Source of the DNA: Promethearchaeota archaeon | GTDB taxonomy: Archaea; Asgardarchaeota; Hermodarchaeia; Hermodarchaeales; Hermodarchaeaceae | Direction of reading: 5' to 3' | Length of the DNA stretch: 45,058 bases | NCBI GenBank assembly: GCA_048938385.1 | Contig: JBHLMG010000017.1 | Coordinates: forward strand, 1 to 45,058 | Shown here: positions 23,996 through 45,058 of the stretch, in pieces | Layout: each line of letters begins with the position of its first letter | Position numbering within the stretch: position 1 is the first letter of the stretch | Translations under genes and position numbers: made by a program | Notes under the pieces: generated by a model | Seen by the model: the letters and a program-made list of their open reading frames with translations, nothing else | Database searches by the model: none | Told to the model about the DNA's origin: nothing

Positions 23996-24052
23996 TTGGA
24001 AACAGCAGTGAATTATGCTTACACCTTGTTCAGTGTGAGTTTTTCTTATAAT
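23996..24052 (-). repeat. actin 3'-end remnant (IIRKTHTEQGVSIIHCCF, stop decayed to CAA)
   Basis: manual minus-strand translation, in register with the consensus. Confidence 0.75.
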
Positions 24053-24125
24053 GATAGATATGTTAATGGGTAGATGATGTATCGTTGAATCCGCTTGAGC
24101 GCAATCACGGTTTGTTGGTGTAGCT

Positions 24126-25568
24126 ATGAGCACTCAACCTCCAACTACAAAAAAGCCCCATCGCTTTGGCATGGATGAGAAGCAGTGGGTAGCCTTTACA
24201 TCCGTGATTGCCGCGATCATCCTCACCACAACTAAGCTAATCGTAGGGCTATGGACCAATAGTTTAGGGATCCTCTCAGAGGCCCTCCATTCAGCCCTAG
24301 ATCTATTCGCCGCAGGAATAACGCTATACGCTGTTCGAAAAGCCGCAACACCAGCCGACACCGATCACCACTATGGACATTGGCGCGTCGAGAACCTATC
24401 CGCTCTCACTGAAACCATTTTGTTACTAGTAACCGTGATCTGGATAATCTACGAAGCGGTCCGCCGTATCATTTTCTATGATCTTATCATAGAGGTCAAT
24501 CTGTTAGCTTTTGGCGTAGTCATATTCGCCATTATCATTGATTTTTCACGCTCACGCGCATTAAAACGAACCGCCAAAAAATACGATAGCCAAGCCTTGG
24601 CAGCAGATGCCCTCCATTTTAGCACAGACATACTCAGTTCCAGTGTTGTCTTAGTCGGATTACTTTTCACTTTCTTTGGATTCCCCCTTGGAGACCCTTT
24701 GGCGGCAATAGGAGTCGCTATTGTCGTGCTTTTCCTGACGATAAAACTAGGTCGGGAAACCGTCGATATACTGTTGGATCGGGCACCGTCCGGCTTAGTA
24801 CCGCCCATTAAACGAGCCATTGAACAGATCGACGGAATCAGAGAGTGTGGCCGGATCCGACTGCGCAAAGCAGGGCCAATAACTTTTGTTGATATTGTCT
24901 GTCATGCTGACCAAACAATTCCTCTTAGCGTCGCCCACGAGATTAGTGTGAAAGCCCGAAACACCGCAGAGCGAATCGTGGGTCGCGCTGATGTCGTCAT
25001 CCATATGGATCTAGCATCGAAACAGCACCCTCACCTTGGTAAAAATCTTCGAAAAATCGCCAAAAACTTCTCCTGGATTAAAGACATCCATGGTATTGAA
25101 ACCTTCGAAGAAAACGATCAGATTGCCCTCGTATTAGACCTTCAAGTCGACCGGAAAATGAGCCTCGCCAAAGCCCATCACCTCGTCACCGAATTTGAAA
25201 CACACATCAAATCACAGTTCCCCTACATCAACGAAATAACCACCCACCTTGAACCCAGCCGTTCACCGGAAACACTGCTTCGAGATCCAACAGCCATCGA
25301 AGCCAAAATACATACCCTCGTTAGAAAGAACCCCCTCCTACATAATTGCCATGACCTCCAACTCATCTCCCTCTCACCTAACTTGTACAACCTCACCTTC
25401 CATTGCGAAGCATCTCCCGAACTCACCGTTGGAGAGATACACAGGGCGACAACACTGCTCGAAGACGAAATCCGTGACGCGCTCCCTATTTTTTCTCAAA
25501 TCATCATCCAAGCTGAACCATTTAAGCCAAAACCGACAAGGAACCTTGGAAAAAATCACGCCAAATAA
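24126..25568 (+). CDS. cation diffusion facilitator (FieF-like) with repeated C-terminal dimerisation domains
   Basis: EALHSALD, PAD.DH.YGH...E, ADALHF.TD; three ZT-dimer-like repeats ending H/Q-x-E/D. Confidence 0.9.
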   Translation: MSTQPPTTKKPHRFGMDEKQWVAFTSVIAAIILTTTKLIVGLWTNSLGILSEALHSALDLFAAGITLYAVRKAATPADTDHHYGHWRVENLSALTETILLLVTVIWIIYEAVRRIIFYDLIIEVNLLAFGVVIFAIIIDFSRSRALKRTAKKYDSQALAADALHFSTDILSSSVVLVGLLFTFFGFPLGDPLAAIGVAIVVLFLTIKLGRETVDILLDRAPSGLVPPIKRAIEQIDGIRECGRIRLRKAGPITFVDIVCHADQTIPLSVAHEISVKARNTAERIVGRADVVIHMDLASKQHPHLGKNLRKIAKNFSWIKDIHGIETFEENDQIALVLDLQVDRKMSLAKAHHLVTEFETHIKSQFPYINEITTHLEPSRSPETLLRDPTAIEAKIHTLVRKNPLLHNCHDLQLISLSPNLYNLTFHCEASPELTVGEIHRATTLLEDEIRDALPIFSQIIIQAEPFKPKPTRNLGKNHAK

Positions 25569-25623
25569 ATAACATCCGCTTCCAGCTTCGAACGGCACAT
25601 ATCTTATTAAAGAGTACCAAGCT

Positions 25624-27282
25624 ATGACAGCCATGGACATTCTGACCATCGTTTTTACCATCGTCGGTGGTCTTGCTCTCTTTATGTATAGCATCAAATT
25701 GCTCAGCGATAGCCTTTCAAAAATAACGGGTCCACGCGTTGTTAGAATTCTTGAAAAGGTCACTGATAATCCTGTGAAAGGCATGGGTGTAGGAACAGCC
25801 ACTACCGTGATGACGCAAAGTTCGAGTATTACGGTTCTAACATTGCTAGGGATGGTCAATGCAGGAATTATGACCTTTCGACAATCTGTAAATGTCATGC
25901 TGGGGTCTGAGATAGGAACCACAATAACAGCCCAGATTGTGTCATTCAATATTGGTTTGACGTATTTTCCACTAATTGCAGTAGCCTTCTTTGTTGGATT
26001 TCTTTCTAAAAATGAAAAGGTAAAATTCGTAGCGAAAGTCGTGTTTAGCTTAGGCTTGCTCTTTCTAGCCATGGATTTGATGGGATTGGGAATAGAACCC
26101 CTTGTGAATCTCCCAATTTTCGTTGACTTACTTAACACCTATGGGCAAAATCCACTTATCGGGGTACTAATAGGCGCCTTGATTGCGGGAGTAACCCAAA
26201 GCAGCTCAGCTACCACTAGTCTCATAATCGCATTTGGCAGGGCAGGTGCCATCAGTTTAGAAGCCGCAATAGCTAATGTGATGGGTGCAAACATCGGAAC
26301 CACTTTCTTAGAATTATTCGCTGCTGTCGGAGCAGCACCCCCAGCGAAAAGGACAGCTTTGGCTCAAGCAATGATTAACATCGTTGGGGTTCTCGTTTTC
26401 TTGCCATTTCTTGTGCCATTCGCTGGACTGGTGACCCTGACTAGCCCAGACCTTGCCAGGCAGATAGCTAATGCACACACAATCTTCAATGTGTTGGTTA
26501 GCCTTATGTTCATTCCACTAGTCGGCGCTTTAGTGTGGTTCTGTGAACATGTAATTCCAAAACGCGAAGGCGAACTCAAGTCGAGGCATTTCTTTGATGA
26601 AAAAATGCTTAATGTTGCACAACTTGCAGTAAGAGAGGCAGAAAGAGAAGTGGTTAGCATCGCAGAAAAAACTCTCAAAATGCTGAACCTGAGTAAAGCT
26701 GCACTAATTAACGAGGACCTAGATGCTGCAAAAGAGGTGATCGAGTTAGAAGATGAAGTAGATGCCTATTGCGATGAAACAGAACTCTTCATCGACAAGA
26801 TCAGAGAAGAGGATCTCACAGAAAGGCAAAAGATATGGCGTATAAAATTACTAAACATTCTCACAGATATTGAACGCGTAGGAGATATGACGAATAACCT
26901 TGCTGAATTCGCCATTCAAAAGGTGAAAGACAAAATCCCGTTCTCGGAGATAGCGAAAGAAGAACTAAGCAAGTTATTTGAAAAAGTTGAAGAAACCCTT
27001 ACTACAGCTATCACTGCGATGCAACAGAGAAATGAGTTCCTCGCTAAACAAGCAGTTGAGTTGGAAGACGAAGTCGATGTCTTAGAAAGGAAATACAAGC
27101 GGAAACATATCAAGAGGACAAGTGAAGGAATTTGTGCTCCTGAGGCAGATGTTATGTTCACAGAAACTCTCAGAAACTTAGAGAGAATCAGCGACCACGC
27201 CGACAACATTGCCTATGATGTCTTGGATACTTTCTTCAATCAACACATTTTAGGAACCCGAAAAAGAATAGCAACCCCCTAA
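25624..27282 (+). CDS. Na+/Pi cotransporter family protein with PhoU domains
   Basis: QSSS x2, G.EIGTT/GANIGTT, DIERVGD, LERISDHA. Confidence 0.92.
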   Translation: MTAMDILTIVFTIVGGLALFMYSIKLLSDSLSKITGPRVVRILEKVTDNPVKGMGVGTATTVMTQSSSITVLTLLGMVNAGIMTFRQSVNVMLGSEIGTTITAQIVSFNIGLTYFPLIAVAFFVGFLSKNEKVKFVAKVVFSLGLLFLAMDLMGLGIEPLVNLPIFVDLLNTYGQNPLIGVLIGALIAGVTQSSSATTSLIIAFGRAGAISLEAAIANVMGANIGTTFLELFAAVGAAPPAKRTALAQAMINIVGVLVFLPFLVPFAGLVTLTSPDLARQIANAHTIFNVLVSLMFIPLVGALVWFCEHVIPKREGELKSRHFFDEKMLNVAQLAVREAEREVVSIAEKTLKMLNLSKAALINEDLDAAKEVIELEDEVDAYCDETELFIDKIREEDLTERQKIWRIKLLNILTDIERVGDMTNNLAEFAIQKVKDKIPFSEIAKEELSKLFEKVEETLTTAITAMQQRNEFLAKQAVELEDEVDVLERKYKRKHIKRTSEGICAPEADVMFTETLRNLERISDHADNIAYDVLDTFFNQHILGTRKRIATP

Positions 27283-27432
27283 AAAGGGAACACCACTACC
27301 CTGGCATGTTCTTAATCATTGGTTTTTTGTTATTTTTTTTAACGCCTTGAACTATGTGAATTCAATTCATTGTGGTAGTTGTACTTTCCGAGTCTAGGGA
27401 TATGACTCTTGATGTGTTGCCCTTTTGTATAC

Positions 27433-27470
27433 TTTGAAGCAGAAGCTGGATTCTACACCTTTCTGTTCAA
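27433..27470 (-). repeat. decayed actin 3'-end remnant
   Basis: + strand tttgaagcagaagctggattctacacc..ctgttc aligns with consensus ttagaagcagcggtggattacacc..ctgctc with indels. Confidence 0.55.
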
Positions 27471-27586
27471 AAAAATTACAAAAAAGGGATTACCAGTGTC
27501 AAGTGTTGCACTCCTCAGCTCCCCTTGATTGATATGCCTCGCTAGCCCTTTGTCAGTTGTTCTTCAGAACTCCACAAAGGATGGTG

Positions 27587-27862: not shown

Positions 27863-27915
27863 AATCGATGAATCTGAAGTTATATGGAACATCACAAATC
27901 ACACAATATTGGACG

Positions 27916-27997
27916 GAAGGGAAGTAGAACCACTTAGAAAAAACTGACTAACGGTTTAGAAGCACCAATGGATAACGCCTGCGTCTTAGCAGAATTT
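27916..27997 (-). repeat. actin 3'-end remnant (*DAGVIHWCF*) plus decayed hairpin
   Basis: GCA GGC GTT ATC CAT TGG TGC TTC TAA on the minus strand. Confidence 0.75.
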
Positions 27998-28004
27998 TCG
28001 ATAG

Positions 28005-28808
28005 TCATTTTTTTCCAATGGCAAAAATGACGGAGGCATCCATCACGCCGGTTTCTTTTACGCGGGCTTTTAGCCGTTCGGCTTGCAAGAAAAGTTCGGA
28101 TGTCCTTTCCAAGAAGAGTTCGGATGTCCTTTCTCTAGACTTCAACCGTTTGAGAGTCTTATCAATCCCTTCAATGAATGCTACAACCAATGATGCTGAT
28201 TTGGGGTCTTCGCACTCAAACCGTTGAGCACAATGCAAACACTTCACATACCGCGAGGAATACAACACTTCTACCTGAGCTAGTTGGAGGGTGTTCAGCA
28301 ATCCCTCGATCTGACTCCGCGTCAGCGTTTCGTTATGTGTGACCCCCTGCAGTCGATCAATCTTCGCCCCCCAATGGTGTTCCATAATCGCCGTGCGTTG
28401 CGCTTCACTCTGCGCGCCATCCCGATACATCTCCTCTACGATGAGCACCCCGCCAGGCTTGAGCACCCGCTTCATCTCAGCCAACACTTGCGAGGTATCA
28501 TCCAGATGGTGCAACGAATTCGCGATACAAACCGTGTCAAAAGAGGCATCCTCAAAGCGTAAGTGCATCGCATCCATCTCAATGAACTGCACCGATTGTC
28601 CCTCAAATTTCTCTCGTGCTGTTGTTAGATCCTCTGAAGCGATATCCACACCGACGAAGCTGTCAAAGGCCTTCAACAGCTTCATCAGCGTTTCGATGAA
28701 TGTTCCCTTCCCCGTACACACATCCAACACCGCTCCCCCTGAAATCCTTGCCAACTGTTGGGCAATCTCCTGCGCACCAGACCCCTCTAAATTCGGTAAA
28801 TACTCCAT
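28005..28808 (-). CDS. class I SAM-dependent methyltransferase
   Basis: VLDVCTGKG, FEDASFD, LHHL, RVLKPGG. Confidence 0.88.
   Translation of the reverse strand: MEYLPNLEGSGAQEIAQQLARISGGAVLDVCTGKGTFIETLMKLLKAFDSFVGVDIASEDLTTAREKFEGQSVQFIEMDAMHLRFEDASFDTVCIANSLHHLDDTSQVLAEMKRVLKPGGVLIVEEMYRDGAQSEAQRTAIMEHHWGAKIDRLQGVTHNETLTRSQIEGLLNTLQLAQVEVLYSSRYVKCLHCAQRFECEDPKSASLVVAFIEGIDKTLKRLKSRERTSELFLERTSELFLQAERLKARVKETGVMDASVIFAIGKK
28087..28134. repeat. 24-bp in-frame tandem duplication (ERTSELFL x2)
   Basis: aagaaaagttcggatgtcctttcc / aagaagagttcggatgtcctttct. Confidence 0.9.
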
Positions 28809-28875
28809 TTTCAACCGCCACACCCATCTACTCTCAGAAATATTAACCTACTCCACTGACACAAAAAAAGCGCAG

Positions 28876-28973
28876 AAAAAAAGGTAGGAGAACAAGCCTC
28901 CTAGTCAACGCAGAGTTAAGAAACAGTAGTGGCTCAACCCCCCATTCTGCTCCAAGCACTCTAGCTTGATTCA
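28876..28973 (-). repeat. actin 3'-end remnant (IKLECLEQNGGLSHYCF) plus TAGGAG/CTCCTA hairpin and T-tract
   Basis: manual translation; hairpin at 28885-28903. Confidence 0.75.
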
Positions 28974-29057: not shown

Positions 29058-29705
29058 ATGGTAGATATGTGGAGGGCTAGGTTACTGCAATTACCCTTTG
29101 ATTGGCTGACACTGACTGCTTGGTTTATCCTACTGTTCGCTATTTGGCTCATCGCAACGATTTTTTACAATATGTATGAAGAAAAAAGACAAATACCAGG
29201 AGTAAGTCAGTGGATTGCTCAAAAGGGTAAAATCCTTTGCACCCAAGCGGAGTTTAAATCCGGTATCCAACTTTCTGTGAGCCCTTCAGACCCTCGGATT
29301 CAACGCCTTGATTTGGGCTCCTTCCGCACCCGAGATATTCATGGCAATATCCATAGTTTCTTTCGCATGCGCCTTCATTTAGCACTAGACGCTGGAATCC
29401 ACTTTGATTTAACCCCCAAACGCTTTGTTCCCGGTGGGATGATTTTTGAACCAGGTGAAGCCATAATCGGAATTGACGCCATTGATCAAGCCTTCTACAC
29501 AGAAACCACTATGTACAAAGAAACTGCACATCTTCTCCAAACACCCAAAATCCTTACAATCCTTGAAGAGCTCCATGAACTCCGGAAACTCCAAGTTAAA
29601 GGTGATGTCATTGAACTCACCTTCAAACGCAAAGTCGAATTACTTGAAACAATGTACCGACTTGCCCGTACAATTGCCTATCGCCTTGAAGAACTCTACA
29701 TCTAA
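29058..29705 (+). CDS. hypothetical membrane-anchored protein
   Basis: N-terminal TM helix; open frame between repeats. Confidence 0.65.
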   Translation: MVDMWRARLLQLPFDWLTLTAWFILLFAIWLIATIFYNMYEEKRQIPGVSQWIAQKGKILCTQAEFKSGIQLSVSPSDPRIQRLDLGSFRTRDIHGNIHSFFRMRLHLALDAGIHFDLTPKRFVPGGMIFEPGEAIIGIDAIDQAFYTETTMYKETAHLLQTPKILTILEELHELRKLQVKGDVIELTFKRKVELLETMYRLARTIAYRLEELYI

Positions 29706-29727
29706 CCCCATTCCACACGCATTCACT

Positions 29728-29807
29728 AGAGCAGGAATGATTGCCCCCAAAACACCAAGGGATTGGAAACAGGGACCGATCCTGCTCGCGCCGAGTTCTG
29801 TATGGTC
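29728..29807 (-). repeat. decayed actin 3'-end remnant (DHTELGASRIGPCF, stop decayed to CAA)
   Basis: in register with the DYVELGAG subtype; aacacc.agg linker retained. Confidence 0.65.
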
Positions 29808-29854
29808 GCACTACAAGCCAGAATATTTTAACCATGAAAGAGGAAAAACTTGCA

Positions 29855-30610
29855 ATGATGCTTAAACATGCGTTGGTCCGTGAACCCGGAGCCCAATACG
29901 CTCAGTGTATTTCATCCCATCCATGGCATCACACCGTGAATGTGGCCCGGGCTCGAGACCAACATGCCGCGTACACTCACACTTTGGCGGAACTCGGACT
30001 CGAAATCATTCGATTACCTCGCGACGATCAACATCCAGACGCGTGCTTTATAGAAGACACCGCAGTCATTTACGAAGGCAAAGCCCTCCTTAGCCGCCTA
30101 GCCAAGAAGAGTCGGCGCGGCGAAGAAGATTCAGTGGCAGAAGTGCTTCGAGAGCATTTACCAGTACACCGTATCAGAGCTCCAGGCACCCTCGAAGGAG
30201 GCGATGTGATCCAATTACCCCACCGGATCATTAGTGGAATCAGTCAGCGAACCAACCAAGCAGGTATTACGCAGATGCAGTCGTATTTTCGCGTACCAAT
30301 TGACACCATTGTAGACCCCCACCTCATCCACCTGAAGAGCCATGTGACCTACCTGAACAACAATATCATGCTCACCACTCCGATCTATGCCGACCACCCC
30401 ATCCTGTCTGATTTCAAGGTCCTCGTTGTCCCCGATAACGAGCACTATGCCGCCAATACCCTCACCTTTGATGATACCGTGTTAATGCCCGCTGGATACC
30501 CGAAAACCTACCAGATGGTCGAACAATCCGGTTTCACAGTAATTTGTTTGAACATGAGTGAAATCGCCAAATGTGACGGCGCCCTCACCTGTTTGTCCCT
30601 CCTATTCTGA
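29855..30610 (+). CDS. dimethylarginine dimethylaminohydrolase / amidinotransferase family
   Basis: PDACFIED, SRRGE, LEGGD, HLKS, YAAN, DGALTCLS. Confidence 0.88.
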   Translation: MMLKHALVREPGAQYAQCISSHPWHHTVNVARARDQHAAYTHTLAELGLEIIRLPRDDQHPDACFIEDTAVIYEGKALLSRLAKKSRRGEEDSVAEVLREHLPVHRIRAPGTLEGGDVIQLPHRIISGISQRTNQAGITQMQSYFRVPIDTIVDPHLIHLKSHVTYLNNNIMLTTPIYADHPILSDFKVLVVPDNEHYAANTLTFDDTVLMPAGYPKTYQMVEQSGFTVICLNMSEIAKCDGALTCLSLLF

Positions 30611-30672
30611 ACCCCTTCACCCACGCATACTGATTAATAAGGACAAGAGTAAGTAACATGGAGGTCTAATGA

Positions 30673-30933
30673 TTGTCTGAGCACACTATGAAGGACCCCG
30701 TAGGTAAAATTACGAATTATTATGCCAAAATCAGTGTGGCTGTCGTAGAATTAACGGCACCATTAAAGAAAGGCGAGAAAATCGCCATTAAAGGCACTAC
30801 GACCGAGTTCACCCAAACTGTCAAATCCATGCAAATAGACCGGAAAGACATCGATACAGCCCAAACCGGTCAAGCCATTGGATTAAAAGTCAAGGACCGC
30901 GTTCGTCCGGGAGATATGGTTTTTCGCGTCTAA
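30673..30933 (+). CDS. translation elongation factor-like small beta-barrel protein
   Basis: VGKITNYY.KISVAV...G.TT.F.Q.V.SMQI...GQ.IGLKV..RVR.GD.V. Confidence 0.8.
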   Translation: MSEHTMKDPVGKITNYYAKISVAVVELTAPLKKGEKIAIKGTTTEFTQTVKSMQIDRKDIDTAQTGQAIGLKVKDRVRPGDMVFRV

Positions 30934-30950
30934 GCTGACGCACACATCAC

Positions 30951-31012
30951 TTAAAAAGCAGCGGTGGATTACACCAATGCCCTGCTCCTTGGATTCCTTT
31001 TTAATGGCCACC
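30951..31012 (-). repeat. actin 3'-end remnant (IKKESKEQGIGVIHRCF then TTAA)
   Basis: also visible in ORF-track frame 30883..31083. Confidence 0.85.
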
Positions 31013-31018: not shown

Positions 31019-31660
31019 TTATTTCTTTGAAAACTGTTCTGGAAGATGGATGGCGAAAGCGCACTCGTCATCACCACTGGCAATCGTGGTAATCACTTCA
31101 ACCTGGACCGGCTTATCCAGAATGCCTTCCCACAGGGTCTTATACCACCCGGAACCGCAAAAGCAAAAAGTCTTGGATATGGGATCTGTCGATGTCCTGA
31201 TCCAGCCACAATGGCAATAGGCTCGACGTTTCGACTCAGAATCGGTTGCTGCTTCAAACTTTTGAGGGGCAAAGGGAATTTTAGTAACATAGATAATGTT
31301 TCCCTTTCGCTCCGGATACTCATAGTAGGATAATCCATCCCAGGAAGTATCTGTATGCATCAGTTTTAGCAATTCATCGATATCTCTGTGTTTTTGATAT
31401 TCTCGTTTGAGTTTTTTAATTCGAGACATCGGAAAGCGATGAGAACAACAGAGAAGGATTTCTCGGCGGGTATCGTTCTCCTTAACGAGTGCATCAAGCC
31501 GCTCGATCGCTCCTTTCACCCATTCGGCTTTCCGCTTTGGAGAACTTTGGGTGGACACGGGACGCCCATCTTCGAGAACCTGCTCTTTGATAGAGCTACC
31601 CACAAATCGTTCAAGGGCTGCTTTGAACTTATCCAACCAAGTCATAACAACCCAGTACAC
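31019..31660 (-). CDS. DUF6144-like protein
   Basis: CHC....  ...TFCFCGSGW.K.LWE.IL.KPV.VEV..TIASGD.EC.F.I. Confidence 0.7.
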   Translation of the reverse strand: MYWVVMTWLDKFKAALERFVGSSIKEQVLEDGRPVSTQSSPKRKAEWVKGAIERLDALVKENDTRREILLCCSHRFPMSRIKKLKREYQKHRDIDELLKLMHTDTSWDGLSYYEYPERKGNIIYVTKIPFAPQKFEAATDSESKRRAYCHCGWIRTSTDPISKTFCFCGSGWYKTLWEGILDKPVQVEVITTIASGDDECAFAIHLPEQFSKK

Positions 31661-31696
31661 ATATCCGTTTTTATGCCTTCATGTTCACTCCAATTC

Positions 31697-31731
31697 AAAA
31701 AAGAGAGAAACGGGAGATAAAACCTCTCCCG
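31697..31731 (-). terminator. hairpin CGGGAGA/TCTCCCG plus T-tract downstream of the PGF-anchored gene
   Basis: perfect 7-bp stem; A-rich run on +. Confidence 0.7.
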
Positions 31732-31744
31732 AACGAAGAACTCA

Positions 31745-32533: not shown

Positions 32534-32610
32534 ATTAGGTTTCCTCCAAGAACCTCCCCTCCAATTAAAGGGGAGAATCCGTTTAGTAGCCGATTTTTGG
32601 CATCAACTGC

Positions 32611-32740
32611 GATATAAGCCCGCGTAACCACCTGAGGTTTACAAAGTACGAAAACGCGCCTCGAAATAGCCCTTTTCATAACCAATCAGGTTGTAAACGG
32701 AAATTCATCGATACATTCGAAGGAACCGATTGGTGTGCAA
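32611..32740 (-). promoter_or_regulatory. 130-bp upstream element, copy 1
   Basis: colinear with 41499-41628; TTATAT box on - about 80 bp before the ATG. Confidence 0.65.
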
Positions 32741-32760
32741 TCAAGTCCGGTGCAGCAAAA

Positions 32761-35489: not shown

Positions 35490-35589
35490 AAAAAAAAGGG
35501 GAGGTACACGCCTCCCACAATTCTGAGCGTGATTAGAAGCAGCGGTGGTTTACGCCAGCCTCCTGCTCCAGGTACTTCTTCTTGGACAG
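35490..35589 (-). repeat. actin 3'-end remnant (LSKKKYLEQEAGVNHRCF*) plus intact GGGAGG/CCTCCC hairpin and T-tract
   Basis: manual translation; stop at 35533-35535. Confidence 0.9.
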
Positions 35590-37133: not shown

Positions 37134-37134
37134 A

Positions 37135-38502
37135 ATGGACCCGGATATACTCTCACTCATTCAGCCCTTTGTGAAGAAAGGAATGAAAATGGGAGCAGAT
37201 GAGGTGGAACTATTTGCTGAAAAAGAGGACAAAAACACCGTGAATATTGAGGCCAACACCCTAAAATCCACGGAAATCGGGACCCTACAAGGTGTCGGGA
37301 TTCGGGCTCTAGTTAACAAGTCACTAGGATTCGCCTGTGTTAGCTCGCTAGAACCAGAAAAAATTCGGATAACTCTAAAAAGGGCAATCTCAATTGCGAA
37401 GTCTACTCCGCTAGATGAACATCACCAACTCGCCCCTCAAAAGCAATTAACCAAGGTAAAAGGCGTGTACGATGAAGCGGTAGAACATTTCGGAATTGAA
37501 CAAGCACTTCACAGAGGAGGACAACTCTTAGACTCTGTGAGAAAAATTGACGAAAGAATCTCGATTATGTTAGGAGGATTTGTAACAAGGGTCAATGAGA
37601 AAGCCATTGCTACTTCTACTGATATTGAGGCCTCTGAGAAAAAAACCGCTTGTTATTATTTCCTCGGTGGAATGGCCATTGATGGACCAGACATCGGTGT
37701 TATAGATATCGATGGCCACGCGATGGTAACAGTTGACGACTTTGACATCGAAAACGCCGCCCAACGCTTCGCACACAAAGTCCTCAGTAATCTTGGTGCC
37801 CAACAAGCTAGGTCCTTCAAAGGCCCGGCGCTCCTCTCCCCCTATGCGATAGTAGAGCTCTTTAATACCCTCATTCAATCATCTTATGCAAGCAACATCC
37901 AATCAGGGCAAAGCCATTTCCAAAATCGTCTGGGTGATGAAATCGCATCCAAAGAACTTACAATTGAAGAAGATGGAACTGTGACTCAGAGTTATGCAAG
38001 CAGTATGTTTGATCGAGAAGGCAATCCACACATTGCAATAAAAATCCTCGACTCGGGCAAATTTACTGGCGTACTGCACAATGCATATACCGCACATCAC
38101 GAGGGAATTGAATCCACAGGACACGCTATTGGTACATTTCGCGAACCGCCCAGTATTGGCTCCACCAACCTCAAAATCCACCCCAGCAACCTCTCCTTCG
38201 ATACTCTAGTATCAGAAATCAAACACGGCCTTCTCATCCAACGCATTAGCGTCTTCCCTGACCCCATCTCTGGAAATTTCTCCGCAGCGCTCAAAGGCGC
38301 TAAACTCATCGAGAACGGCGAAATCACCACTACCCTCAAAGAAATCACCGCTCTCGGAAACCTCTACGAGAGCCTCAACCACATCACCGGCATCGAAAAC
38401 ACCCTCCATCCCGGTATCACTGAACGAATCTACATGACCGGCGTGACCAAACGCTGGCACATCCCCCACATCCGCATCGACAACCTCCAATTCGTCGCCT
38501 AA
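37135..38502 (+). CDS. pmbA: PmbA/TldE family protein
   Basis: GADEVE, GVGIR, FDREG, STGHA, SGNFS; lacks HExxH. Confidence 0.88.
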   Translation: MDPDILSLIQPFVKKGMKMGADEVELFAEKEDKNTVNIEANTLKSTEIGTLQGVGIRALVNKSLGFACVSSLEPEKIRITLKRAISIAKSTPLDEHHQLAPQKQLTKVKGVYDEAVEHFGIEQALHRGGQLLDSVRKIDERISIMLGGFVTRVNEKAIATSTDIEASEKKTACYYFLGGMAIDGPDIGVIDIDGHAMVTVDDFDIENAAQRFAHKVLSNLGAQQARSFKGPALLSPYAIVELFNTLIQSSYASNIQSGQSHFQNRLGDEIASKELTIEEDGTVTQSYASSMFDREGNPHIAIKILDSGKFTGVLHNAYTAHHEGIESTGHAIGTFREPPSIGSTNLKIHPSNLSFDTLVSEIKHGLLIQRISVFPDPISGNFSAALKGAKLIENGEITTTLKEITALGNLYESLNHITGIENTLHPGITERIYMTGVTKRWHIPHIRIDNLQFVA

Positions 38503-38514
38503 CACCGACCCAGC

Positions 38515-38615
38515 AAAAAAGAAACAAAACTGGAAGCCCCCCCCCACAACACCGAGTGTGATTAGAAACAGTGGTGGATCATGCCTGTGCCCTGTTCCAG
38601 GTACCCCTTTTTGTA
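38515..38615 (-). repeat. actin 3'-end remnant (YKKGYLEQGTGMIHHCF*) plus linker and decayed hairpin
   Basis: stop at 38562-38564. Confidence 0.88.
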
Positions 38616-38729
38616 CTTCAGATATTTCAGTAGGGGGTAATGAGTATGATTCTCATTATGTAAAGTTCAAAACTAACATCTATGATATAAGGTAGCAACC
38701 CTTCATGACAGCTGAGTTGAGCGTGATAC

Positions 38730-39689
38730 TTGATGGATACCATTGATCGAAAACTGCTTTGGGAGCTCCATGAAAATTGTCGTGCTTCCTATAAGACCTT
38801 ATCCAGTGTGTTGGGCATATCTGCCAATGCCGTAAAAAAGCGAGTAGCAAAACTCATCGATACCGGTGTCATCTTTAATTACACCATAATGTTCTCATTA
38901 GATATGCTAAGCTCAGAAGTTTTGTATGGACTCGTTCATACAGATGGCGAGGAAAAGGCTCAAGACTTTATTAATCAGCTTGGAGCCAACCCCATGATTC
39001 ATGTGGTTGGATCAATCGCTAGCCTAACCGGAGGGGCATACATTATCTCTGCACAATATATTGGAGCCCCTGGGCTATTAGAATTAGGTCGGTTTATTCG
39101 CACCCTTGACCATGTATCAGAAGTTGAACTTTTCCCCCTTTTAATTCCTCAAGACCATGCCGATGCACAGGCATTTCCAATTCGATCAACACGGAGGGAA
39201 GGAGAGTTTACGAAAACAGAGCTGAAAGTTTTGCAGTGTTTGCTTGAAGATGCAAGGATGTCTATCAGTGATATCGCAAACCTCACAGGATTAACAGCTC
39301 GGAGAGTGGGACGAACCATCCAGCAACTTATGAACCGCGGGGTCATGTTTTCAGTACGCTGGAATCTCAGTGCTGGAGGATTAGATGTGGTCATTATACG
39401 AATCAGGGTTGATGAACTACAAAAGTCAATAAGTGAGGTGTCTGGATGGTTGCGTTCTGAGTTCCCAGATGAATTCTGGTTGCCGTATATATCCGCAGAC
39501 GAACCGCTAGTTTTTGCAATCTTCGTAGTGCAAAATATGCAAATCGCAGAAAAAATCGCTCGCACAATCAAAGAAGCCCCCTTTGTAAAATCGATCGCTG
39601 TTTCTGTTCAATTCTCAGAAACTAAATTCCCCTGGCTCGGAGAACTAAAAATTAGAGAAATGATACATAACGCTGGATTAACCGATTAA
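38730..39689 (+). CDS. double Lrp/AsnC winged-helix regulator
   Basis: MDTIDRKLL.EL..NCR.SY..L...ISANAVKKRV; VLQCLLEDARM. Confidence 0.85.
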   Translation: MMDTIDRKLLWELHENCRASYKTLSSVLGISANAVKKRVAKLIDTGVIFNYTIMFSLDMLSSEVLYGLVHTDGEEKAQDFINQLGANPMIHVVGSIASLTGGAYIISAQYIGAPGLLELGRFIRTLDHVSEVELFPLLIPQDHADAQAFPIRSTRREGEFTKTELKVLQCLLEDARMSISDIANLTGLTARRVGRTIQQLMNRGVMFSVRWNLSAGGLDVVIIRIRVDELQKSISEVSGWLRSEFPDEFWLPYISADEPLVFAIFVVQNMQIAEKIARTIKEAPFVKSIAVSVQFSETKFPWLGELKIREMIHNAGLTD

Positions 39690-39697
39690 GCTCGGAG

Positions 39698-39757
39698 TAA
39701 ACACGAGTGAATGACGCTAGCACCCTGCGCCATGCATTCCTTTCTCGGAACTCGCAT
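39698..39757 (-). repeat. actin 3'-end remnant (MRVPRKECMAQGASVIHSCL)
   Basis: in register with consensus MWVTKKEYMEQGA.VIH.CF. Confidence 0.82.
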
Positions 39758-39766
39758 CAATTTCGG

Positions 39767-40720
39767 TTACTCACTTGAGAGGTCTAGCATCTGATGTAAT
39801 CGCGTCTCATTTGGTGCAGGAAATATCCGCATCGCATGATAAATGAGCGTTTCCACTGACTGCACCATGGGGAGTTCTTTCACTGCCTCGGAAATCTCTT
39901 CAACGGTCCGTAAATCGGTAACCACTAGTTTGTTCCAAACTTCTGGTTCCTCTAAGGGCCAATGGGAATGCCAATGCTCGAGGGGATACCGTTCCTTGAA
40001 CCACTCCACAATTTCGAGAGGCCCCCCTTGACCGGGATTATATCCGACTTTGACGATACAATCAAAATCTTCGCCAGCCCCAAGAACCATACGGTGTGTA
40101 AAGTGAATATTTCCGCTGGTTTGAAGCTCTTTAAGCACGCTTCGTACGCGCTTGGGCGTTAATTTGGACTGTCGGGCAATCTCTACGACGGGCATCCGAG
40201 CATCGTCAACCAGACAGCGTAACACCTGTTTTTGGAGCTTGGTAAAGGTCAGCGCTTGACTATCAGTGGCAGGTACACATGGCTTCTGCCCTAGCGAGGT
40301 TATCGCACCACTTGCCACATGGTATCGGTTTATTTCTACCTGAGTGACATGGTCGATTCCGCGAAGTGTGCGTTCGAGGTCGAGCAGCTCTTCCACCCCT
40401 GACACCTGCGCTACACTAACATAGCGTCCTTCGATAATATTGACAACATGAGTAAGTTGTCGGGTGTCACCTAACTGTTGTATGAGTGCCACTTTGTTCT
40501 CGTTCCCATCGGTGGAAAGCGTGATAGCTAACTGCGTTAGCCCATATCTGGTGCAACATAACGCGACAGTGAATCGCACGATTACCCCCGACTCGAGGAG
40601 CTTGTCAACCCGTTTCTTGATCGCATTCACCGTCAGCCCCAGCTTCCGGGCTAAGGTCTGATACGATTGCCGACAGTTCAATGACAACTCAGCCAGCAGC
40701 CGTTTGTCAGTCATATCCAA
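39767..40720 (-). CDS. double Lrp/AsnC winged-helix regulator
   Basis: LDMTDKRLL.EL..NCRQSY..LA..LGLTVNAIKKRV; VLRCLVDDARMP. Confidence 0.85.
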   Translation of the reverse strand: MDMTDKRLLAELSLNCRQSYQTLARKLGLTVNAIKKRVDKLLESGVIVRFTVALCCTRYGLTQLAITLSTDGNENKVALIQQLGDTRQLTHVVNIIEGRYVSVAQVSGVEELLDLERTLRGIDHVTQVEINRYHVASGAITSLGQKPCVPATDSQALTFTKLQKQVLRCLVDDARMPVVEIARQSKLTPKRVRSVLKELQTSGNIHFTHRMVLGAGEDFDCIVKVGYNPGQGGPLEIVEWFKERYPLEHWHSHWPLEEPEVWNKLVVTDLRTVEEISEAVKELPMVQSVETLIYHAMRIFPAPNETRLHQMLDLSSE

Positions 40721-40818
40721 ACCCAAACCACAACACCACAGACGCCACACCTATACCTTCCCCTCCGTAAATACCCCACGGGCAACAGATCTGATTACCA
40801 CACAACTAAAATTAAATG

Positions 40819-40911
40819 AAAAAAAGAAAGGGAGAAACAAGACTTCTGAATGAACACCGTTTACAAATAGCGATAGATGACACCAGCACCCTGCGCCATG
40901 TTTTCTTTTTT
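40819..40911 (-). repeat. actin 3'-end remnant (KKENMAQGAGVIYRYL*) plus decayed hairpin and T-tract
   Basis: stop at 40861-40863. Confidence 0.85.
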
Positions 40912-40912
40912 A

Positions 40913-41377
40913 TCATTCTAACTTGATTGCAGCTTGAGGAGGCTTGAGGACCAAGAATAAGTCCTTTGATGGAGGTTGTTCAAGCTTCATCGAAGCGTTC
41001 CAAACCCCTTCTTCTGCCACAACGGCTAATCCGAAGCCCACCTCACTCAACCTGAGCAGATATTTGAGGTGAACATCCATTTGCCTCAGTATGTTCTGTA
41101 ATTGATGGGTTTTTTCCTCAGACATCTCATTTGCATTCAATTGCGCATTAAGATCAGACACCCAATTTGGAAGAGATACCTCAACTACGAGTTCTACTAA
41201 ACTAAGTGGCTTTATACTGCGAATGAGGAGAATCTGAACCCAGGCGGTTTCATAAACGACGACACTTTGTTCAGTAGAATCCTCTGAAAGAACGGATTTC
41301 ATTGGCTCAGCAACCAACTGTCGATAAACCTTCACCAGATCCGAATACTCCATTCCACACATCACCATGTTCAACAA
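40913..41377 (-). CDS. hypothetical protein
   Basis: open frame; start uncertain. Confidence 0.6.
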   Translation of the reverse strand: MLNMVMCGMEYSDLVKVYRQLVAEPMKSVLSEDSTEQSVVVYETAWVQILLIRSIKPLSLVELVVEVSLPNWVSDLNAQLNANEMSEEKTHQLQNILRQMDVHLKYLLRLSEVGFGLAVVAEEGVWNASMKLEQPPSKDLFLVLKPPQAAIKLE

Positions 41378-41498
41378 TCATGATATAAACATTCAATTCG
41401 TCACTTGGGAACAATGGGAAAAGGGGAAGATGAATACCTTCGAGGAGACCCTAACACTCCAAGAGCCGCCCTTTTGATTTCTAACTAGCATAAACCTG

Positions 41499-41628
41499 GA
41501 TATAATCCTGCGTAACCCCAGAAGGCATTCAAAGTACGAAAACATGCTTCGACAACGCCCTTTTGGAAACCAATCAGGTGGTAAACGGAAATCAGATGAA
41601 TCATTCGAAAGAGTTGACAGGTGTGCAA
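41499..41628 (-). promoter_or_regulatory. 130-bp upstream element, copy 2
   Basis: shares gcgtaacc, caaagtacgaaaac, gcccttt, aaccaatcaggt.gtaaacggaaat, cattcgaa and ggtgtgcaa with 32611-32740. Confidence 0.65.
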
Positions 41629-41704
41629 CGAAGTTTTCTGCGAAATCTCGTGCGGGCGCAAAATCCTTCGAAGTTAAATACGAGATTACTTACAGAAAGG
41701 AACC

Positions 41705-41821
41705 ATGGCATCCTCACGAACCATTTGTGGCGTCATACTCATCATCCTCGTCGCCGCCCTCATCTTATTCTTCGCATACATCAACTACTGGGGAGCGCTG
41801 CGTCCCCACCCCATCCCATGA
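41705..41821 (+). CDS. 38-aa single-TM microprotein (MASSRTICGVILIILVAALILFFAYINYWGALRPHPIP)
   Basis: below the ORF-track cutoff; AAGGA upstream; clean hydrophobic helix. Confidence 0.5.
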   Translation: MASSRTICGVILIILVAALILFFAYINYWGALRPHPIP

Positions 41822-41910
41822 CAGGTACACCCATTAACTAACAGCGACCGCTAGACCACCACAAACTACCCTTCAACCAACAGCACCATCACTCGAACAC
41901 GAAGAGTTGT

Positions 41911-42013
41911 AAAAAACAAAAAAGAGAGGCAAACGCCTCTCACGACACCGAGGATGCTAGAAGCCGTAGTGGATCAGGCCCGCGCCCAGCTCCACATAGT
42001 CTTTCTTTGCCAT
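41911..42013 (-). repeat. actin 3'-end remnant (MAKKDYVELGAGLIHYGF*) plus GAGAGGC/GCCTCTC hairpin and T-tract
   Basis: stop at 41957-41959. Confidence 0.85.
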
Positions 42014-42070
42014 CTGGAACTGCCCAGGTTTTTATCCACGAAACTAGAAGAAACCATGAGGACGAGCAGA

Positions 42071-42493
42071 ATGGCCACCGCTGGATATGCCCAATTTGAA
42101 ATTGAGGGACAGATCAAAGAAATCGTCGAAGCTTTAGAACCGAAGTTTGGTGGGTGCTTCACCCGCTGCTACGAGCACCAAGGACATTGTACCCTCGCCA
42201 TCCTCCTTGGGCAAAAATATTATGTGTTTTGGGGAAACAACGAAGCTGCTGTATCCATCATACTCCGTGACGAAGGATACACCACCTTCATGGAAGTCAT
42301 AGGATTCGCTGGTGGCACCGGCTTACTCCGTCTAGACTACGGGCGTAACAAAAGCATCATCGATGAAGTCGAAATCCACCTCCGAAATACAGGTTTCAAA
42401 CTCACCAGAATTCACTTCAGTGAACTCCCCGAACAGCCCCACCGAAACCACAAAAGCTACACCCGCACTGAACCCCTCACCCTATCCAATTAA
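42071..42493 (+). CDS. hypothetical protein (DUF6054-like)
   Basis: KYY...N.AAVSII....T.....AGG.GLL..D.G pattern; start moved past the repeat. Confidence 0.55.
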   Translation: MATAGYAQFEIEGQIKEIVEALEPKFGGCFTRCYEHQGHCTLAILLGQKYYVFWGNNEAAVSIILRDEGYTTFMEVIGFAGGTGLLRLDYGRNKSIIDEVEIHLRNTGFKLTRIHFSELPEQPHRNHKSYTRTEPLTLSN

Positions 42494-42540
42494 TCGACAA
42501 CGCCATGCAAAAACTCAAACCAAACCATGAGCGATCGATT

Positions 42541-42643
42541 AAAAAGCAACGGGAGGTACACGCTTCCCACACCACTGAGGATGCTAGAAGCCGCGGTGGA
42601 TCATGTCCGCGCCCTACCTGACATAGTCTTTTTTTGCAATCCA
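42541..42643 (-). repeat. actin 3'-end remnant (WIAKKDYVR*GADMIHRGF*) plus hairpin
   Basis: stop at 42584-42586; internal TAG. Confidence 0.85.
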
Positions 42644-42691
42644 CTAGTCCCTGAGCTAGAGTTAAAGCGGAACATTCCAAATTACGAACCC

Positions 42692-43669
42692 ATGTTGGTG
42701 CTAGTAACCGGAGCTTTTGGAAATATCGGGGAAAGTACACTGTTAGCCTTATTTGAGCACAAGCATCAGATTCGATGCTTTGACTTGCACACAAAACAAA
42801 ACGAGAAAACCGCAAAGAGATTGCAAAAGCATGGCGAGTTTGAAACCGTATGGGGCGATGTGCGAGATGTCGATACTACAAAGAACATCGTGGAGGACAT
42901 CGAATGCATCATTCATCTAGCAGCGATCATTCCCCCGCAAAGCGAAACGAACAACGAATTCACCACTGCCGTGAATGTGGGCGGAACATTACGGCTGATA
43001 GAAGTCGCAGAAGCCTTGCCCGTCAAACCAAAATTCATCTTGGCCAGTTCAATCTCTGTTTTTGGACCAACCATGCATCTCCCCCCACCAAGAACAGCGG
43101 ATGACCCCCTTCACCCAACGGACACCTATACCACCACGAAAGTAAAATGCGAAACGGCGCTCCGGGCCAGCGCCCTTCCCTGGACTATCCTCCGCCTGGT
43201 AGCTGTTCCCCCCTTACGAATCAGTGGCGAAATGGACCCGATACTATTCGAAATGCCCCTCGACCAACGCATCGAATTCATCCATACCCGCGATGTCGGC
43301 ACTGCCTTTGCCAACGCCGTAACCGCGAAGACCACGAACAAAGTCCTTCTCATCGGAGGGGGCAAACCCAACCAGATGTATCAACGCGAATTCGTTGCCA
43401 AAATCCTCACCGCCATGGGACTTGGCATGCTTCCCGAGTCCGCCTTTCGCGTTGCAACCAAACCCGACGAATGGTTCTACACTGATTGGGTGGACACCAC
43501 CGAATCCCAACAACTCTTAGAATACCAACACCACACCTACGACCAATACCTCGACGACCTCAAACGCGCAATTGGATTCAAACGCCACCTCGCACGACTC
43601 TTCCGAGGCCTCGCCAAAAAACGCCTCCTCGCCCAATCACCCTACTACCAAAAACCAAGGAATTCCTAA
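42692..43669 (+). CDS. NAD-dependent epimerase/dehydratase (extended SDR)
   Basis: VLVTGAFGNIG, GDV, IHLAA, YTTTK. Confidence 0.9.
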   Translation: MLVLVTGAFGNIGESTLLALFEHKHQIRCFDLHTKQNEKTAKRLQKHGEFETVWGDVRDVDTTKNIVEDIECIIHLAAIIPPQSETNNEFTTAVNVGGTLRLIEVAEALPVKPKFILASSISVFGPTMHLPPPRTADDPLHPTDTYTTTKVKCETALRASALPWTILRLVAVPPLRISGEMDPILFEMPLDQRIEFIHTRDVGTAFANAVTAKTTNKVLLIGGGKPNQMYQREFVAKILTAMGLGMLPESAFRVATKPDEWFYTDWVDTTESQQLLEYQHHTYDQYLDDLKRAIGFKRHLARLFRGLAKKRLLAQSPYYQKPRNS

Positions 43670-43746
43670 CTAGGCTTCAACCACCACCGAAAGCTAATGC
43701 TTCATTGCGCCACACTCGTGCTAATCCCACATCCAGTCAGGATCAG

Positions 43747-43857
43747 AAAAAGAAAGTTGGGAAACAAAACCGCCCAGCCACGAATGAAGACCAACTAGAA
43801 GCAGCGATGGATTACGCTGGCACCCCACCCCATGTACTCCTTCTTCACCGTCCACAC
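43747..43857 (-). repeat. actin 3'-end remnant (VWTVKKEYMGWGASVIHRCF*)
   Basis: stop at 43795-43797. Confidence 0.9.
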
Positions 43858-43888
43858 ACTTATTCCTTCACAAGGAGGATGATTCACT

Positions 43889-44383
43889 ATGTCAATACAG
43901 TCATCTGAAAAAAGAACCAAAACAGAAAGACTTACTCAATTTCTCAATGACGCCTCCAACCGTCTAGAACAGGCAATTGATAACTTACAAGACACGGAAC
44001 TAAATTGGCGTCCATCGCCGAGCAGCAACTCCATTGGCAATCTTCTCAAACACATAGCGGGGGCCGAAACCTTTTGGATTCACCATGTAATCAGCGGAAG
44101 GGAAACCACACGAATTCGCAGCACCGAATTCGAGGTCAAAGAGTTCCATATCGCAGATCTCCGAGAAGAACTCACCGTCGTCAAAAACACGACAACCAAA
44201 CTACTCACGAAGCTAGCCGACAAAGACATAGATAAAACCCGAACCTACTGGTCTCAACTCGCCAATCGGCAAAAGAAAACCACCGTCCACTGGGCTATCT
44301 TACACATCATCGAGCACACAGCCCAACACACAGGTCAAATCTTCTATATCCGAAAAATGTATGCAGACCTCAAACCCCAATAA
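43889..44383 (+). CDS. DinB family protein
   Basis: LNWRP...NSIGNLL.HI.G.E..WI; HIIEH..QH.GQI; AGGAGG RBS. Confidence 0.88.
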   Translation: MSIQSSEKRTKTERLTQFLNDASNRLEQAIDNLQDTELNWRPSPSSNSIGNLLKHIAGAETFWIHHVISGRETTRIRSTEFEVKEFHIADLREELTVVKNTTTKLLTKLADKDIDKTRTYWSQLANRQKKTTVHWAILHIIEHTAQHTGQIFYIRKMYADLKPQ

Positions 44384-44415: not shown

Positions 44416-44520
44416 AAAAAATGAAAAAAGGGAGGTCAGCGCCTCCCACACATCCGAGGATGCTTAGAAACAGCGGTGGATCACGCCCGTACCCTGCGCC
44501 ATGTACGCCTTCTTGGTAAC
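44416..44520 (-). repeat. actin 3'-end remnant (VTKKAYMAQGTGVIHRCF*) plus intact hairpin and T-tract
   Basis: stop at 44464-44466; one of the most consensus-like copies. Confidence 0.92.
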
Positions 44521-44620
44521 CGTTTGCGTACGGTGAAGGTTCGCTGCAGAGTTCGATACGATTTTATGCGACATCAAAACTTGGTACCTCTGAGGATGAC
44601 CCATCTTGCTCGAAGAAAAA

Positions 44621-44845
44621 ATGGCTATTCCCCCCCACACCCATCCCCACCCGCCTCCAGACACGATGGGGCGGTGGCCACGACGGTTACGCCCGTTGCT
44701 CTATGTGATCGTTTTTTTAATCATTTTGATCGCTGTTGCAGTAGTATCGGGGCAGATTTTCTGGGTTGGGGTGCTATTCGTGATCATTTTCGTCACCATA
44801 ATTTTCGGAATTATATGGTCACGGACACACCCAGAGGAAGCTTAA
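44621..44845 (+). CDS. small two-TM membrane protein
   Basis: Pro/His-rich N-terminus followed by two hydrophobic helices. Confidence 0.6.
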   Translation: MAIPPHTHPHPPPDTMGRWPRRLRPLLYVIVFLIILIAVAVVSGQIFWVGVLFVIIFVTIIFGIIWSRTHPEEA

Positions 44846-44870
44846 GCTGAGACGACAGTTCGTAGCACTT

Positions 44871-44903
44871 AAAAAAGAGAAAGAAAGGGAGGCAGCGCCT
44901 CCC
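44871..44903 (-). terminator. GGGAGG/CCTCCC hairpin plus T-tract
   Basis: gggaggcagcgcctccc, nearly identical to the hairpin at 44430-44447. Confidence 0.75.
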
Positions 44904-44917
44904 AAGGATTAAGCCGA

Positions 44918-45058
44918 TTACTTCGGTTGTGTGGGCGATCTGCGCCGCCGATACAGCACACCGATGGTCAGTGCGCTCACAATGCCCACCGCAACGGCAA
45001 CTGCTGGGAATCCCGGAATTGGTGGTGGTGTTCCATCGGTTCCATCGGTTCCATCGGT
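44918..45058 (-). CDS. C-terminus of a surface protein with PGF-type sorting signal (partial, runs off the window)
   Basis: TDGTDGTDGTPPPIPGFPAVAVAVGIVSALTIGVLYRRRRSPTQPK*; paralogous tail to 31745-32533. Confidence 0.85.
   Translation of the reverse strand, partial: TDGTDGTDGTPPPIPGFPAVAVAVGIVSALTIGVLYRRRRSPTQPK

Follow-up and report, generated by a model that had tools for sequence, protein, structure and literature searches.

What has placed more than a dozen copies of the 3' end of an actin gene, all on the same strand, between unrelated genes of an Asgard archaeon, and how did these genes arrive there? The question is raised by a stretch of 45,058 nucleotides (nt) from Promethearchaeota archaeon (GCA_048938385.1), referred to here as the window. 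It corresponds to positions 1-45058 of contig C12 in a 2.48-Mb genome of 51 contigs (G000; G- and L-numbers are codes of compared genomes and contigs). The likely answer, in our view, is that the array is a record of serial homing by F6, a free-standing LAGLIDADG gene located next to actin and outside the window, with each event installing a new actin 3' end.

A direct-repeat search detected an 11-12-member family spanning 27.9-44.5 kb of the window. An nhmmer profile built from the repeats was used to search the whole genome and returned 15 copies (REP; E 5e-24 to 1e-3), the identical set being recovered with an Infernal sequence model. All 15 are located on the minus strand of C12, 13 of them inside the window (23979-44521) and two on the contig tail, and the profile found none in the remaining genome contigs. 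The same-strand copies of an actin end described in an earlier note on this DNA are thus real. On the minus strand, the unit (~100 nt) consists of the last 19 actin codons with the consensus W-V-T-K-K-E-Y-M-E-Q-G-A-G-V-I-H-R-C-F, a stop codon, ~10 variable nt, a hairpin (GGGAGGC...GCCTCCC) and, directly after it, a T-run. Homology starts at the W codon ~57 nt 5' of the stop, close to the start that the note had reported for most copies, and ends ~45 nt 3' of the stop, past the T-run. Successive copies are 627-3653 nt apart. Across genomes, hairpin folding at <= -5 kcal/mol is retained in 68 of 77 copies. Inspection of the repeat core by eye revealed no convincing dif-like or dyad symmetry. The copies in the window are listed from right to left; they were found with nhmmer and Infernal unless other evidence is named.

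44420-44521, minus strand: displaced actin 3'-end copy with codons ...TKKAYMAQGTGVIHRCF, stop, hairpin and T-run, the best preserved in the window (nhmmer E 4.6e-24; R1 84 bits)
43747-43854, minus strand: REP copy
42541-42643, minus strand: REP copy with an in-frame stop, of a subtype shared with the 41914 copy (repeat family D6, nhmmer, Infernal)
41914-42014, minus strand: REP copy with a compensatory hairpin change, GAGAGG/CCTCTC
40820-40918, minus strand: REP copy
39652-39751, minus strand: REP copy, degenerate, without stop
38518-38618, minus strand: REP copy
35490-35588, minus strand: REP copy, well preserved (direct-repeat search, nhmmer, Infernal)
34560-34664, minus strand: REP copy
30943-31009, minus strand: REP copy, coding part retained, hairpin gone
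28876-28971, minus strand: REP copy, degenerate
27912-28016, minus strand: REP copy, degenerate, with an internal insertion
23979-24049, minus strand: REP remnant, the most distal detectable (R1 E 2.4e-5; nhmmer)
44869-44919, minus strand: half REP, hairpin and T-run without coding part (repeat family D7)

The polarity of these copies had led the note to predict that an actin gene on the minus strand would be found to the right of position 45058. In G000 itself, the one strong actin match is the 5' half of the gene, on the minus strand at the start of contig C15 (6-584). The other end is found in L049 (GCA_048886565.1), which matches C12 42263-45058 at 99.96% and C12 45159-47786 at 100% and extends 6.1 kb past the end of C12 to a minus-strand actin 3' end. 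From L049, the actin stop is placed ~8.4 kb to the right of window position 45058, as predicted. The 100-N gap at C12 45059-45158 contains no missing sequence, the two L049 stretches overlapping by 29 nt. This overlap (window 45030-45058, C12 45059-45186) falls inside a ACCGATGGA (T-D-G) tandem repeat, and the minus-strand gene of a LamG-like secreted protein with a PGF-CTERM-like tail runs uninterrupted across the gap. The L049 extension carries five further repeat copies together with an AsnC-type gene, a 192-amino-acid (aa) open reading frame (ORF), a metallo-beta-lactamase-fold gene, a gene for a 316-aa membrane protein, a 176-aa ORF and a 377-aa ORF, which is F6. The complete array comprises ~20 copies across 29.5 kb. 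In G014, a single contig (C30) contains an intact actin gene and then seven more copies on the same strand.

F6 is located immediately 3' of actin and convergent with it; its stop is 0-25 nt from the T-run of the repeat or overlaps the T-run. It is the first gene after actin in all nine lineages with an assembled actin-proximal end, namely L049 (G000-type), G014, G012, G004, G008, G005, L062, L063 and G011, and the order in these lineages is actin REP1, F6, REP2. The G005 gene carries an internal stop, the proteins of the metagenomic relatives L062 and L063 are 54-57% identical, and G011 has a divergent F6 variant at the same site. Strong homologs are limited to this genus among 400 genomes of the phylum. 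A tblastn search of F6 against the window's own assembly gave no match because the actin-adjacent 6 kb are unassembled there; the gene was recovered from L049.

The identity of F6 was derived from its predicted fold. An AlphaFold2 model based on 12 homologs (mean predicted local distance difference test score 84.8) has a doubled alpha-beta-beta-alpha-beta-beta-alpha pattern. The best 42 Foldseek matches in the PDB consist solely of LAGLIDADG homing endonucleases and a LAGLIDADG maturase, with probabilities up to 1.00, and rank 43 is WhiA, likewise of LAGLIDADG fold. Alignment with VIA-align over F6 residues ~100-377 gave Z values of 9.4-13.6, among them 13.6 for WhiA, 12.5 for the archaeal I-Tsp061I, 11.6 for an intein endonuclease and 10.2 for I-DmoI. 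The two LAGLIDADG motifs, ...IAIMLITDGGAG and ...RLAMSTEGSI, each end in a conserved acidic residue, and T127-D128-G129 and E255-G256 are invariant in the 12 homologs. The invariance of both motif ends fits an enzyme with catalytic activity better than a binding protein of the WhiA kind.

Several observations tie F6 to the growth of the array. At least 12 internal repeats in nine genomes precede 15-200 nt of F6 3' coding sequence, as detected by nhmmer (E down to 7e-61) with a profile that joins the repeat to 400 nt from the 3' end of F6, and protein-level F6 fragments agree with these nucleotide-level stumps. Such repeats therefore formerly adjoined F6, like the in-use actin end today. Together with the genus-restricted homologs, the internal stop in G005 and the divergent variant in G011, the stumps fit the life cycle of a selfish element, with patchy presence, decay and re-invasion.

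The displaced copies themselves differ from the consensus mainly at synonymous sites. Among 50 copies, differences at codon positions 1, 2 and 3 number 127, 99 and 325 (chi-square p about 1e-36), and several copies encode a perfect WVTKKEYMEQGAGVIHRCF despite 5-9 synonymous changes. This third-position bias indicates divergence while the copies were working actin ends in diverged lineages. Judged by their codons, the displaced copies appear to be former functional actin ends and not the products of decay of one local duplication. Identity to the in-use actin end also drops with distance in G000 (Spearman rho -0.71, p 0.002, n 16), so that the rough polarity proposed in the earlier note is significant, and in L062 the corresponding rho is -0.81.

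Comparison with relatives places the growth of the array between actin and its old neighbours. Of the 14 genomes of the genus, 11 have arrays, which always occupy one to three contigs in a genome and a single strand of each contig; multi-copy arrays are confined to this genus among 151 sampled genomes of the phylum. Matches outside the genus are single actin 3' ends, except that two f15-family genomes have two matches each, located on different contigs. The sister genus, represented by G016, has neither F6 nor an array: actin is followed by only three ORFs and then by two gene families of the array's distal flank. The DUF362 and 380-aa families are ~2 kb from actin in G016; in G000, G011 and G014 both belong to the conserved distal flank (window ~12.4-16.3 kb). 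The array is thus an expansion that has separated actin from an old neighbour. Cassette families are common to several species at 65-85% nucleotide identity. Their order varies between genomes, and orientation relative to the repeats is constant in 17 of the 18 families seen at least three times. The sequential addition at actin that the note had proposed, with the oldest units pushed to the left, is borne out by the G014 contig, on which actin and array share one strand, and by the short actin-to-flank distance in G016. Gene order between the repeats, whose invariance among relatives the note had named as evidence to the contrary, differs.

The actin gene upstream of the repeat carries a further signature. 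In six congeneric pairs, mean third-position identity across the 5'-terminal 720 nt is 0.81, against 0.63 for the 300 nt upstream of the repeat; it is lower there in all six pairs, with values down to 0.2-0.4 in 60-nt windows, and amino-acid identity is 98-100% in the same pairs. The pattern looks like that of co-conversion tracts. Such a drop is predicted by break repair with co-conversion from diverged donors and not by conservative site-specific crossover. Actin is interrupted by a contig end in six of the eight congeners that have a strong match, probably because its 3' third is a population mosaic (synonymous identity 0.81 falling to 0.63).

A possible cleavage region emerges from broken repeats. 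The first repeat on the distal side of F6 is truncated in three lineages, at points that agree to within 3 nt (...CTGGCGT), and unrelated DNA follows the break. The gene of the 316-aa protein in L049 is located between a repeat 5' half (profile 2-40) and a 3' half (45-105), and four other half repeats, two 5' and two 3', have their breaks at profile positions 42-49. These breakpoints are suggestive of the region that F6 would likely cleave.

Duplicated gene ends also accompany related endonucleases elsewhere. Distant F6 relatives of ~500 aa are multi-copy at scattered loci in Asgard family f15/g18, and of seven loci examined, two have a duplicated end of the neighbouring gene as flank. The L058 endonuclease gene is convergent with a dehydrogenase-like gene, whose in-use 3' end is on one side of it and a displaced 64-nt copy of that end on the other (24-87 versus 1869-1932); the copy encodes LRKMVRAGQLGRKTGKGFYDYSK, nearly the same 23 residues. 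The L060 duplicate comprises 49 nt of the gene's 5' end (445-493 versus 2585-2633). Duplication of gene ends may be general for this endonuclease family.

The following course of events would account for the array. F6 would cut an F6-free or different actin allele, either incoming or resident, near codons -7 to -5, in the GCTGGCGT/nATCCAC stretch at profile positions 40-49. The break would be repaired from an F6-bearing donor, and repair would bring in the donor's last actin codons with the hairpin terminator, then F6 and then the genes up to the donor's next repeat. The resident 3' end, plus everything behind it, would be displaced one step downstream. The displaced F6, no longer needed, would decay and be deleted, with cargo left between two repeats. 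About 20 such rounds would yield a 30-kb cassette island with the youngest units adjoining actin, and ectopic repair among the direct repeats would reorder, duplicate and delete units with their orientation preserved. We infer that F6 cleaves, where exactly it cuts and how cargo first entered. A broader proposal is more tentative, with somewhat less than an even chance: that the homing endonuclease, and not an integrase, drives the acquisition and shuffling of cassettes, with breaks at the actin 3' end and at displaced copies repaired from non-allelic repeats or foreign DNA, so that the selfish gene would build and reshuffle a 30-kb flexible island. The cargo of an island built on such an endonuclease platform comprises transporters, regulators and repair genes, anchored on actin.

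A number of points weigh against serial homing by F6. Concerning the protein, F6 lacks a Pfam LAGLIDADG match and has no Pfam family at E <= 0.1, and a PDB sequence-profile search returned nothing relevant, so that its identity comes from the fold alone; its highest structural Z is that to WhiA, a non-catalytic LAGLIDADG-derived regulator. Concerning the site, the recognition sequence was deduced solely from breakpoints, ~30 ragged repeat ends exist and the choice of the 40-49 cluster is partly post hoc, and the in-use actin end adjoining F6 still contains the putative cleavage site. A polymorphism at the Val codon was considered as a basis for immunity, with GTT or GTA in the in-use copies beside F6 and GTG in many displaced copies; it was dropped, as repeats linked to F6 stumps carry GTG equally often. 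Across genomes, 5' and 3' repeat halves show no clear difference from background in their linkage to proximal versus distal cassettes. No surviving F6 stump is found inside the window, and the six pairwise actin comparisons are not independent. Finally, most cassettes are bounded by full repeats and not by half-sites, and simple break capture fails to explain the entry of cargo. Break capture, to which the gene of the 316-aa protein points, would give half-sites; it is more likely that cargo is carried between F6 and the donor's next repeat.

It is unlikely that the locus is instead an integron- or tycheposon-like island, in which a recombinase encoded elsewhere (a single XerA-type enzyme or one of an unrecognised kind) integrates small circular cassettes at the actin 3' end by means of an attachment site resembling actin, F6 being a frequent passenger. 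Direct repeats of ~100 nt in uniform orientation, cassettes of fixed orientation in shuffled order, the newest copies closest to actin, breakpoints clustered at a single spot of the repeat and one cassette protein with a weak integrase-type SAM-like N-domain all agree with it. However, the window contains no integrase or transposase, as the earlier note had stated, and the only match to the tyrosine recombinase family PF00589 in G000 is on contig C26, which is not an array contig. In 15 congeners, ~17 array contigs are likewise free of PF00589 genes; every genome encodes a single conserved Xer-like protein of ~315 aa, in each case away from the array contigs. No units with their own integrase were found on these contigs, serine recombinases and transposases not having been searched systematically. 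F6 is also the first gene at all nine assembled actin-proximal ends, its stumps accompany at least 12 internal repeats, the junctions differ by 1-3 nt and are not exact, and the raised synonymous divergence for ~300 nt upstream of the repeat, which resembles co-conversion, is not produced by a conservative crossover. Neither mechanism considered in the note, site-specific recombination by an enzyme in trans or the integration of circles by single crossover, gained positive support; what is found beside actin is F6, with decayed copies at internal repeats.

Homologous recombination acting by itself is rather improbable. On this view, the actin end was duplicated long ago, once or a few times, after which unequal exchange, the looping-out of circles and their re-insertion among the repeats shaped the array; F6 would be a bystander or else a DNA-binding protein that has been domesticated. 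Exchange can be supported by direct repeats of 100 nt, cycles of duplication and deletion could reorder cassettes, and paralogous cassettes do occur within a single array, as shown by the three Lrp-type genes of the window and by repeat families D4 and D5. Against this, the mainly synonymous differences and often perfect actin tails point to separate functional sources, and 60-80% identity over 100 nt makes a poor substrate for exchange. The constant first position of F6 and its recurrence as stumps are left unexplained, as are the terminal duplications at related endonuclease loci elsewhere. An assembly or binning artefact, with chimeric contigs caused by the repeated sequence, would suit the interruption of actin by contig ends in most congeners and the scaffold gap in C12, but is extremely improbable given the same architecture in more than 12 independent assemblies from different sources, one contig covering intact actin plus seven downstream copies and a C12 gap that is merely a 29-nt overlap.

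Serial homing by F6 remains the favoured explanation, and the genes between the repeats are described here as its presumed cargo. Pfam assignments agree with the list given in the earlier note (CDF, Na/Pi, methyltransferase, DDAH, Tag, DUF4332, TldD/PmbA, Lrp, SDR and DinB). The cassettes and the distal flank are as follows (SAM, S-adenosylmethionine; wHTH, winged helix-turn-helix; MBL, metallo-beta-lactamase).

24126-27282, plus strand: CDF cation-efflux gene (24126-25568) and Na/Pi cotransporter-PhoU gene (25624-27282), antisense to the repeats
28005-28823, minus strand: SAM methyltransferase
29058-30933, plus strand: uncharacterised 215-aa protein, DDAH/ADI-like protein (29741-30610) and 86-aa small protein; families common to 5-9 genomes
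31019-34528, strand mixed or unspecified: DUF6144, 262-aa PGF-CTERM-like protein, double-wHTH Lrp/AsnC regulator (32761-33723) and Tag glycosylase (33962-34528)
34739-35455, plus strand: DUF4332 protein, a separate cassette in three genomes
35748-38502, plus strand: TldD and PmbA
38730-41837, mixed strands: double-wHTH Lrp/AsnC regulators (38730-39689, plus; 39767-40750, minus) and small ORFs
41954-44383, plus strand: DUF6054-like protein, SDR/epimerase (42527-43669) and DinB/MST (43889-44383)
12436-18854, strand unspecified: conserved distal flank with amidohydrolase, DUF362, 380-aa ORF, M20 peptidase and MBL, syntenic in G011 and G014

The CDF and Na/Pi-PhoU families occur in other order and context in G014, G005, G006 and G009 (blastn, maps). 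The N-terminus of the DUF4332 protein scores 24.8 bits, below the cut-off, against the phage-integrase SAM-like core-binding domain; the protein is without a catalytic domain and could be an accessory DNA-binding factor. Three paralogous regulators of ~320 aa with two AsnC-type wHTH domains each are encoded in the window (32761-33723, minus; 38730-39689, plus; 39767-40750, minus). The double-wHTH regulator is the commonest cassette family, with 15 copies across the arrays, and is usually accompanied by a 260-300-aa PGF-CTERM-like protein and a 140-170-aa ORF. Two further pairs of direct repeats, 32600-32746 versus 41488-41634 (147 nt, 74%) and 31744-31857 versus 44917-45030 (114 nt, 76%), reflect partial duplication of cassette genes inside the array; among the duplicated parts are the PGF-CTERM-like tails of two secreted proteins. 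In the more distant relative L062, the cargo (4348-7915) is a defence-like and signalling mix of a NERD protein, a BglII-like endonuclease fragment, a PLD-family protein and a Ras/Roc small GTPase, unlike that of the window.

To the left of the last detectable repeat, an ORF at 21243-21701 (plus) is a homolog of the small ORF that adjoins the endonuclease gene in G014. Its position beyond the last repeat suggests that the array formerly extended further left and that the oldest repeats have eroded. Genes for OB-fold proteins resembling single-stranded DNA-binding protein, at 21874-22386 (plus) and 8398-9003 (minus), belong to a multi-copy family with 10 members across loci, which is recurrent at the distal edge of arrays in several genomes, often as inverted pairs.

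No account of this locus was found in the searched literature on actin, integrons, LAGLIDADG proteins and homing endonucleases of Asgard archaea. Its nearest known counterpart is found in fungal mitochondria, whose mobile ORFs (mORFs) bring a foreign copy of the host gene's C-terminus, and the native C-terminus remains as a remnant behind the ORF (PMC3630166). This was first shown for atp6-ORF360 of Allomyces macrogynus and later for the atp6, atp9, cox2 and nad3 hybrids of Glomus, where the endonuclease is of LAGLIDADG type in three of four cases; inserted and native C-termini show strong nucleotide and small protein differences (PMC3630166). The layout of in-use terminus, endonuclease ORF and displaced terminus is the same at the actin locus in the nine lineages and also in L058 and L060, and the duplicated actin termini similarly differ in nucleotides and keep the protein (127/99/325). 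The two systems differ in orientation: F6 is on the opposite strand and convergent with actin, and the hairpin terminator is consequently part of the duplicated unit, whereas the mORF is on the strand of the host gene and often in phase. The actin locus further differs in its archaeal chromosomal setting and its target, in the recurrence of the event at one site about 20 times as compared with once for fungal mORFs, and in up to 3.4 kb of unrelated cargo between successive displaced actin ends, which is common to and reshuffled among species.

Similarities to integrons are small, promoter-poor cassettes divided by a recurring site, polar growth from a single anchor, and cassettes shared by relatives in differing orders. 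Unlike in integrons, there is no IntI-type recombinase beside actin, PF00589 genes being found only on other contigs in the 15 congeners. The recurring site is an in-frame, codon-biased homolog of the actin 3' end, whereas attC is a structured imperfect palindrome unrelated to a host gene. Genes are present in both orientations, and the anchor is the 3' end of a housekeeping gene.

Tycheposon islands of Prochlorococcus and archaeal tRNA-targeting elements arise by serial insertion at the 3' ends of genes or tRNAs through integrases; with each insertion the gene is made whole again and part of its end is left behind as a copy, which yields a flexible island. The actin array likewise combines serial insertion at a conserved gene 3' end with partial end copies and a flexible island. 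In contrast to these islands, no element with an integrase is found in any actin array (a systematic search for serine recombinases and transposases was not part of the analysis), units are of much smaller size and the gene upstream of the repeat is a conversion-like mosaic. The free-standing homing endonucleases of T-even phages (intronless homing) are encoded beside their target and spread via break repair with co-conversion of the flanks. F6 is similarly located beside, and not inside, its presumed target, and its spread would likewise involve break repair with co-conversion of the flanks. To our knowledge, intronless homing in T-even phages involves neither duplicated target ends nor cargo arrays, both of which are features of the actin locus.

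Repeated invasion by a homing-endonuclease gene, most likely the origin of this array, is a previously undescribed route to gene-cassette islands. If serial homing is correct, the locus would be the first chromosomal, archaeal and many-times-iterated case of an endonuclease gene replacing the end of a host gene, and the first in which such end replacement assembles a cargo-bearing island that is variable between species. It would represent a route to flexible genomic islands without an integrase or transposase, and F6 would be a new compact candidate meganuclease with a predictable target. The Hodarchaeales-type Asgard actin would be a mosaic in which foreign alleles overwrite the 3' third time and again, and this mosaicism would bear on actin phylogenies as well as on the assembly of such genomes. 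The gene on which the array is anchored is the actin of one of the closest archaeal relatives of eukaryotes.

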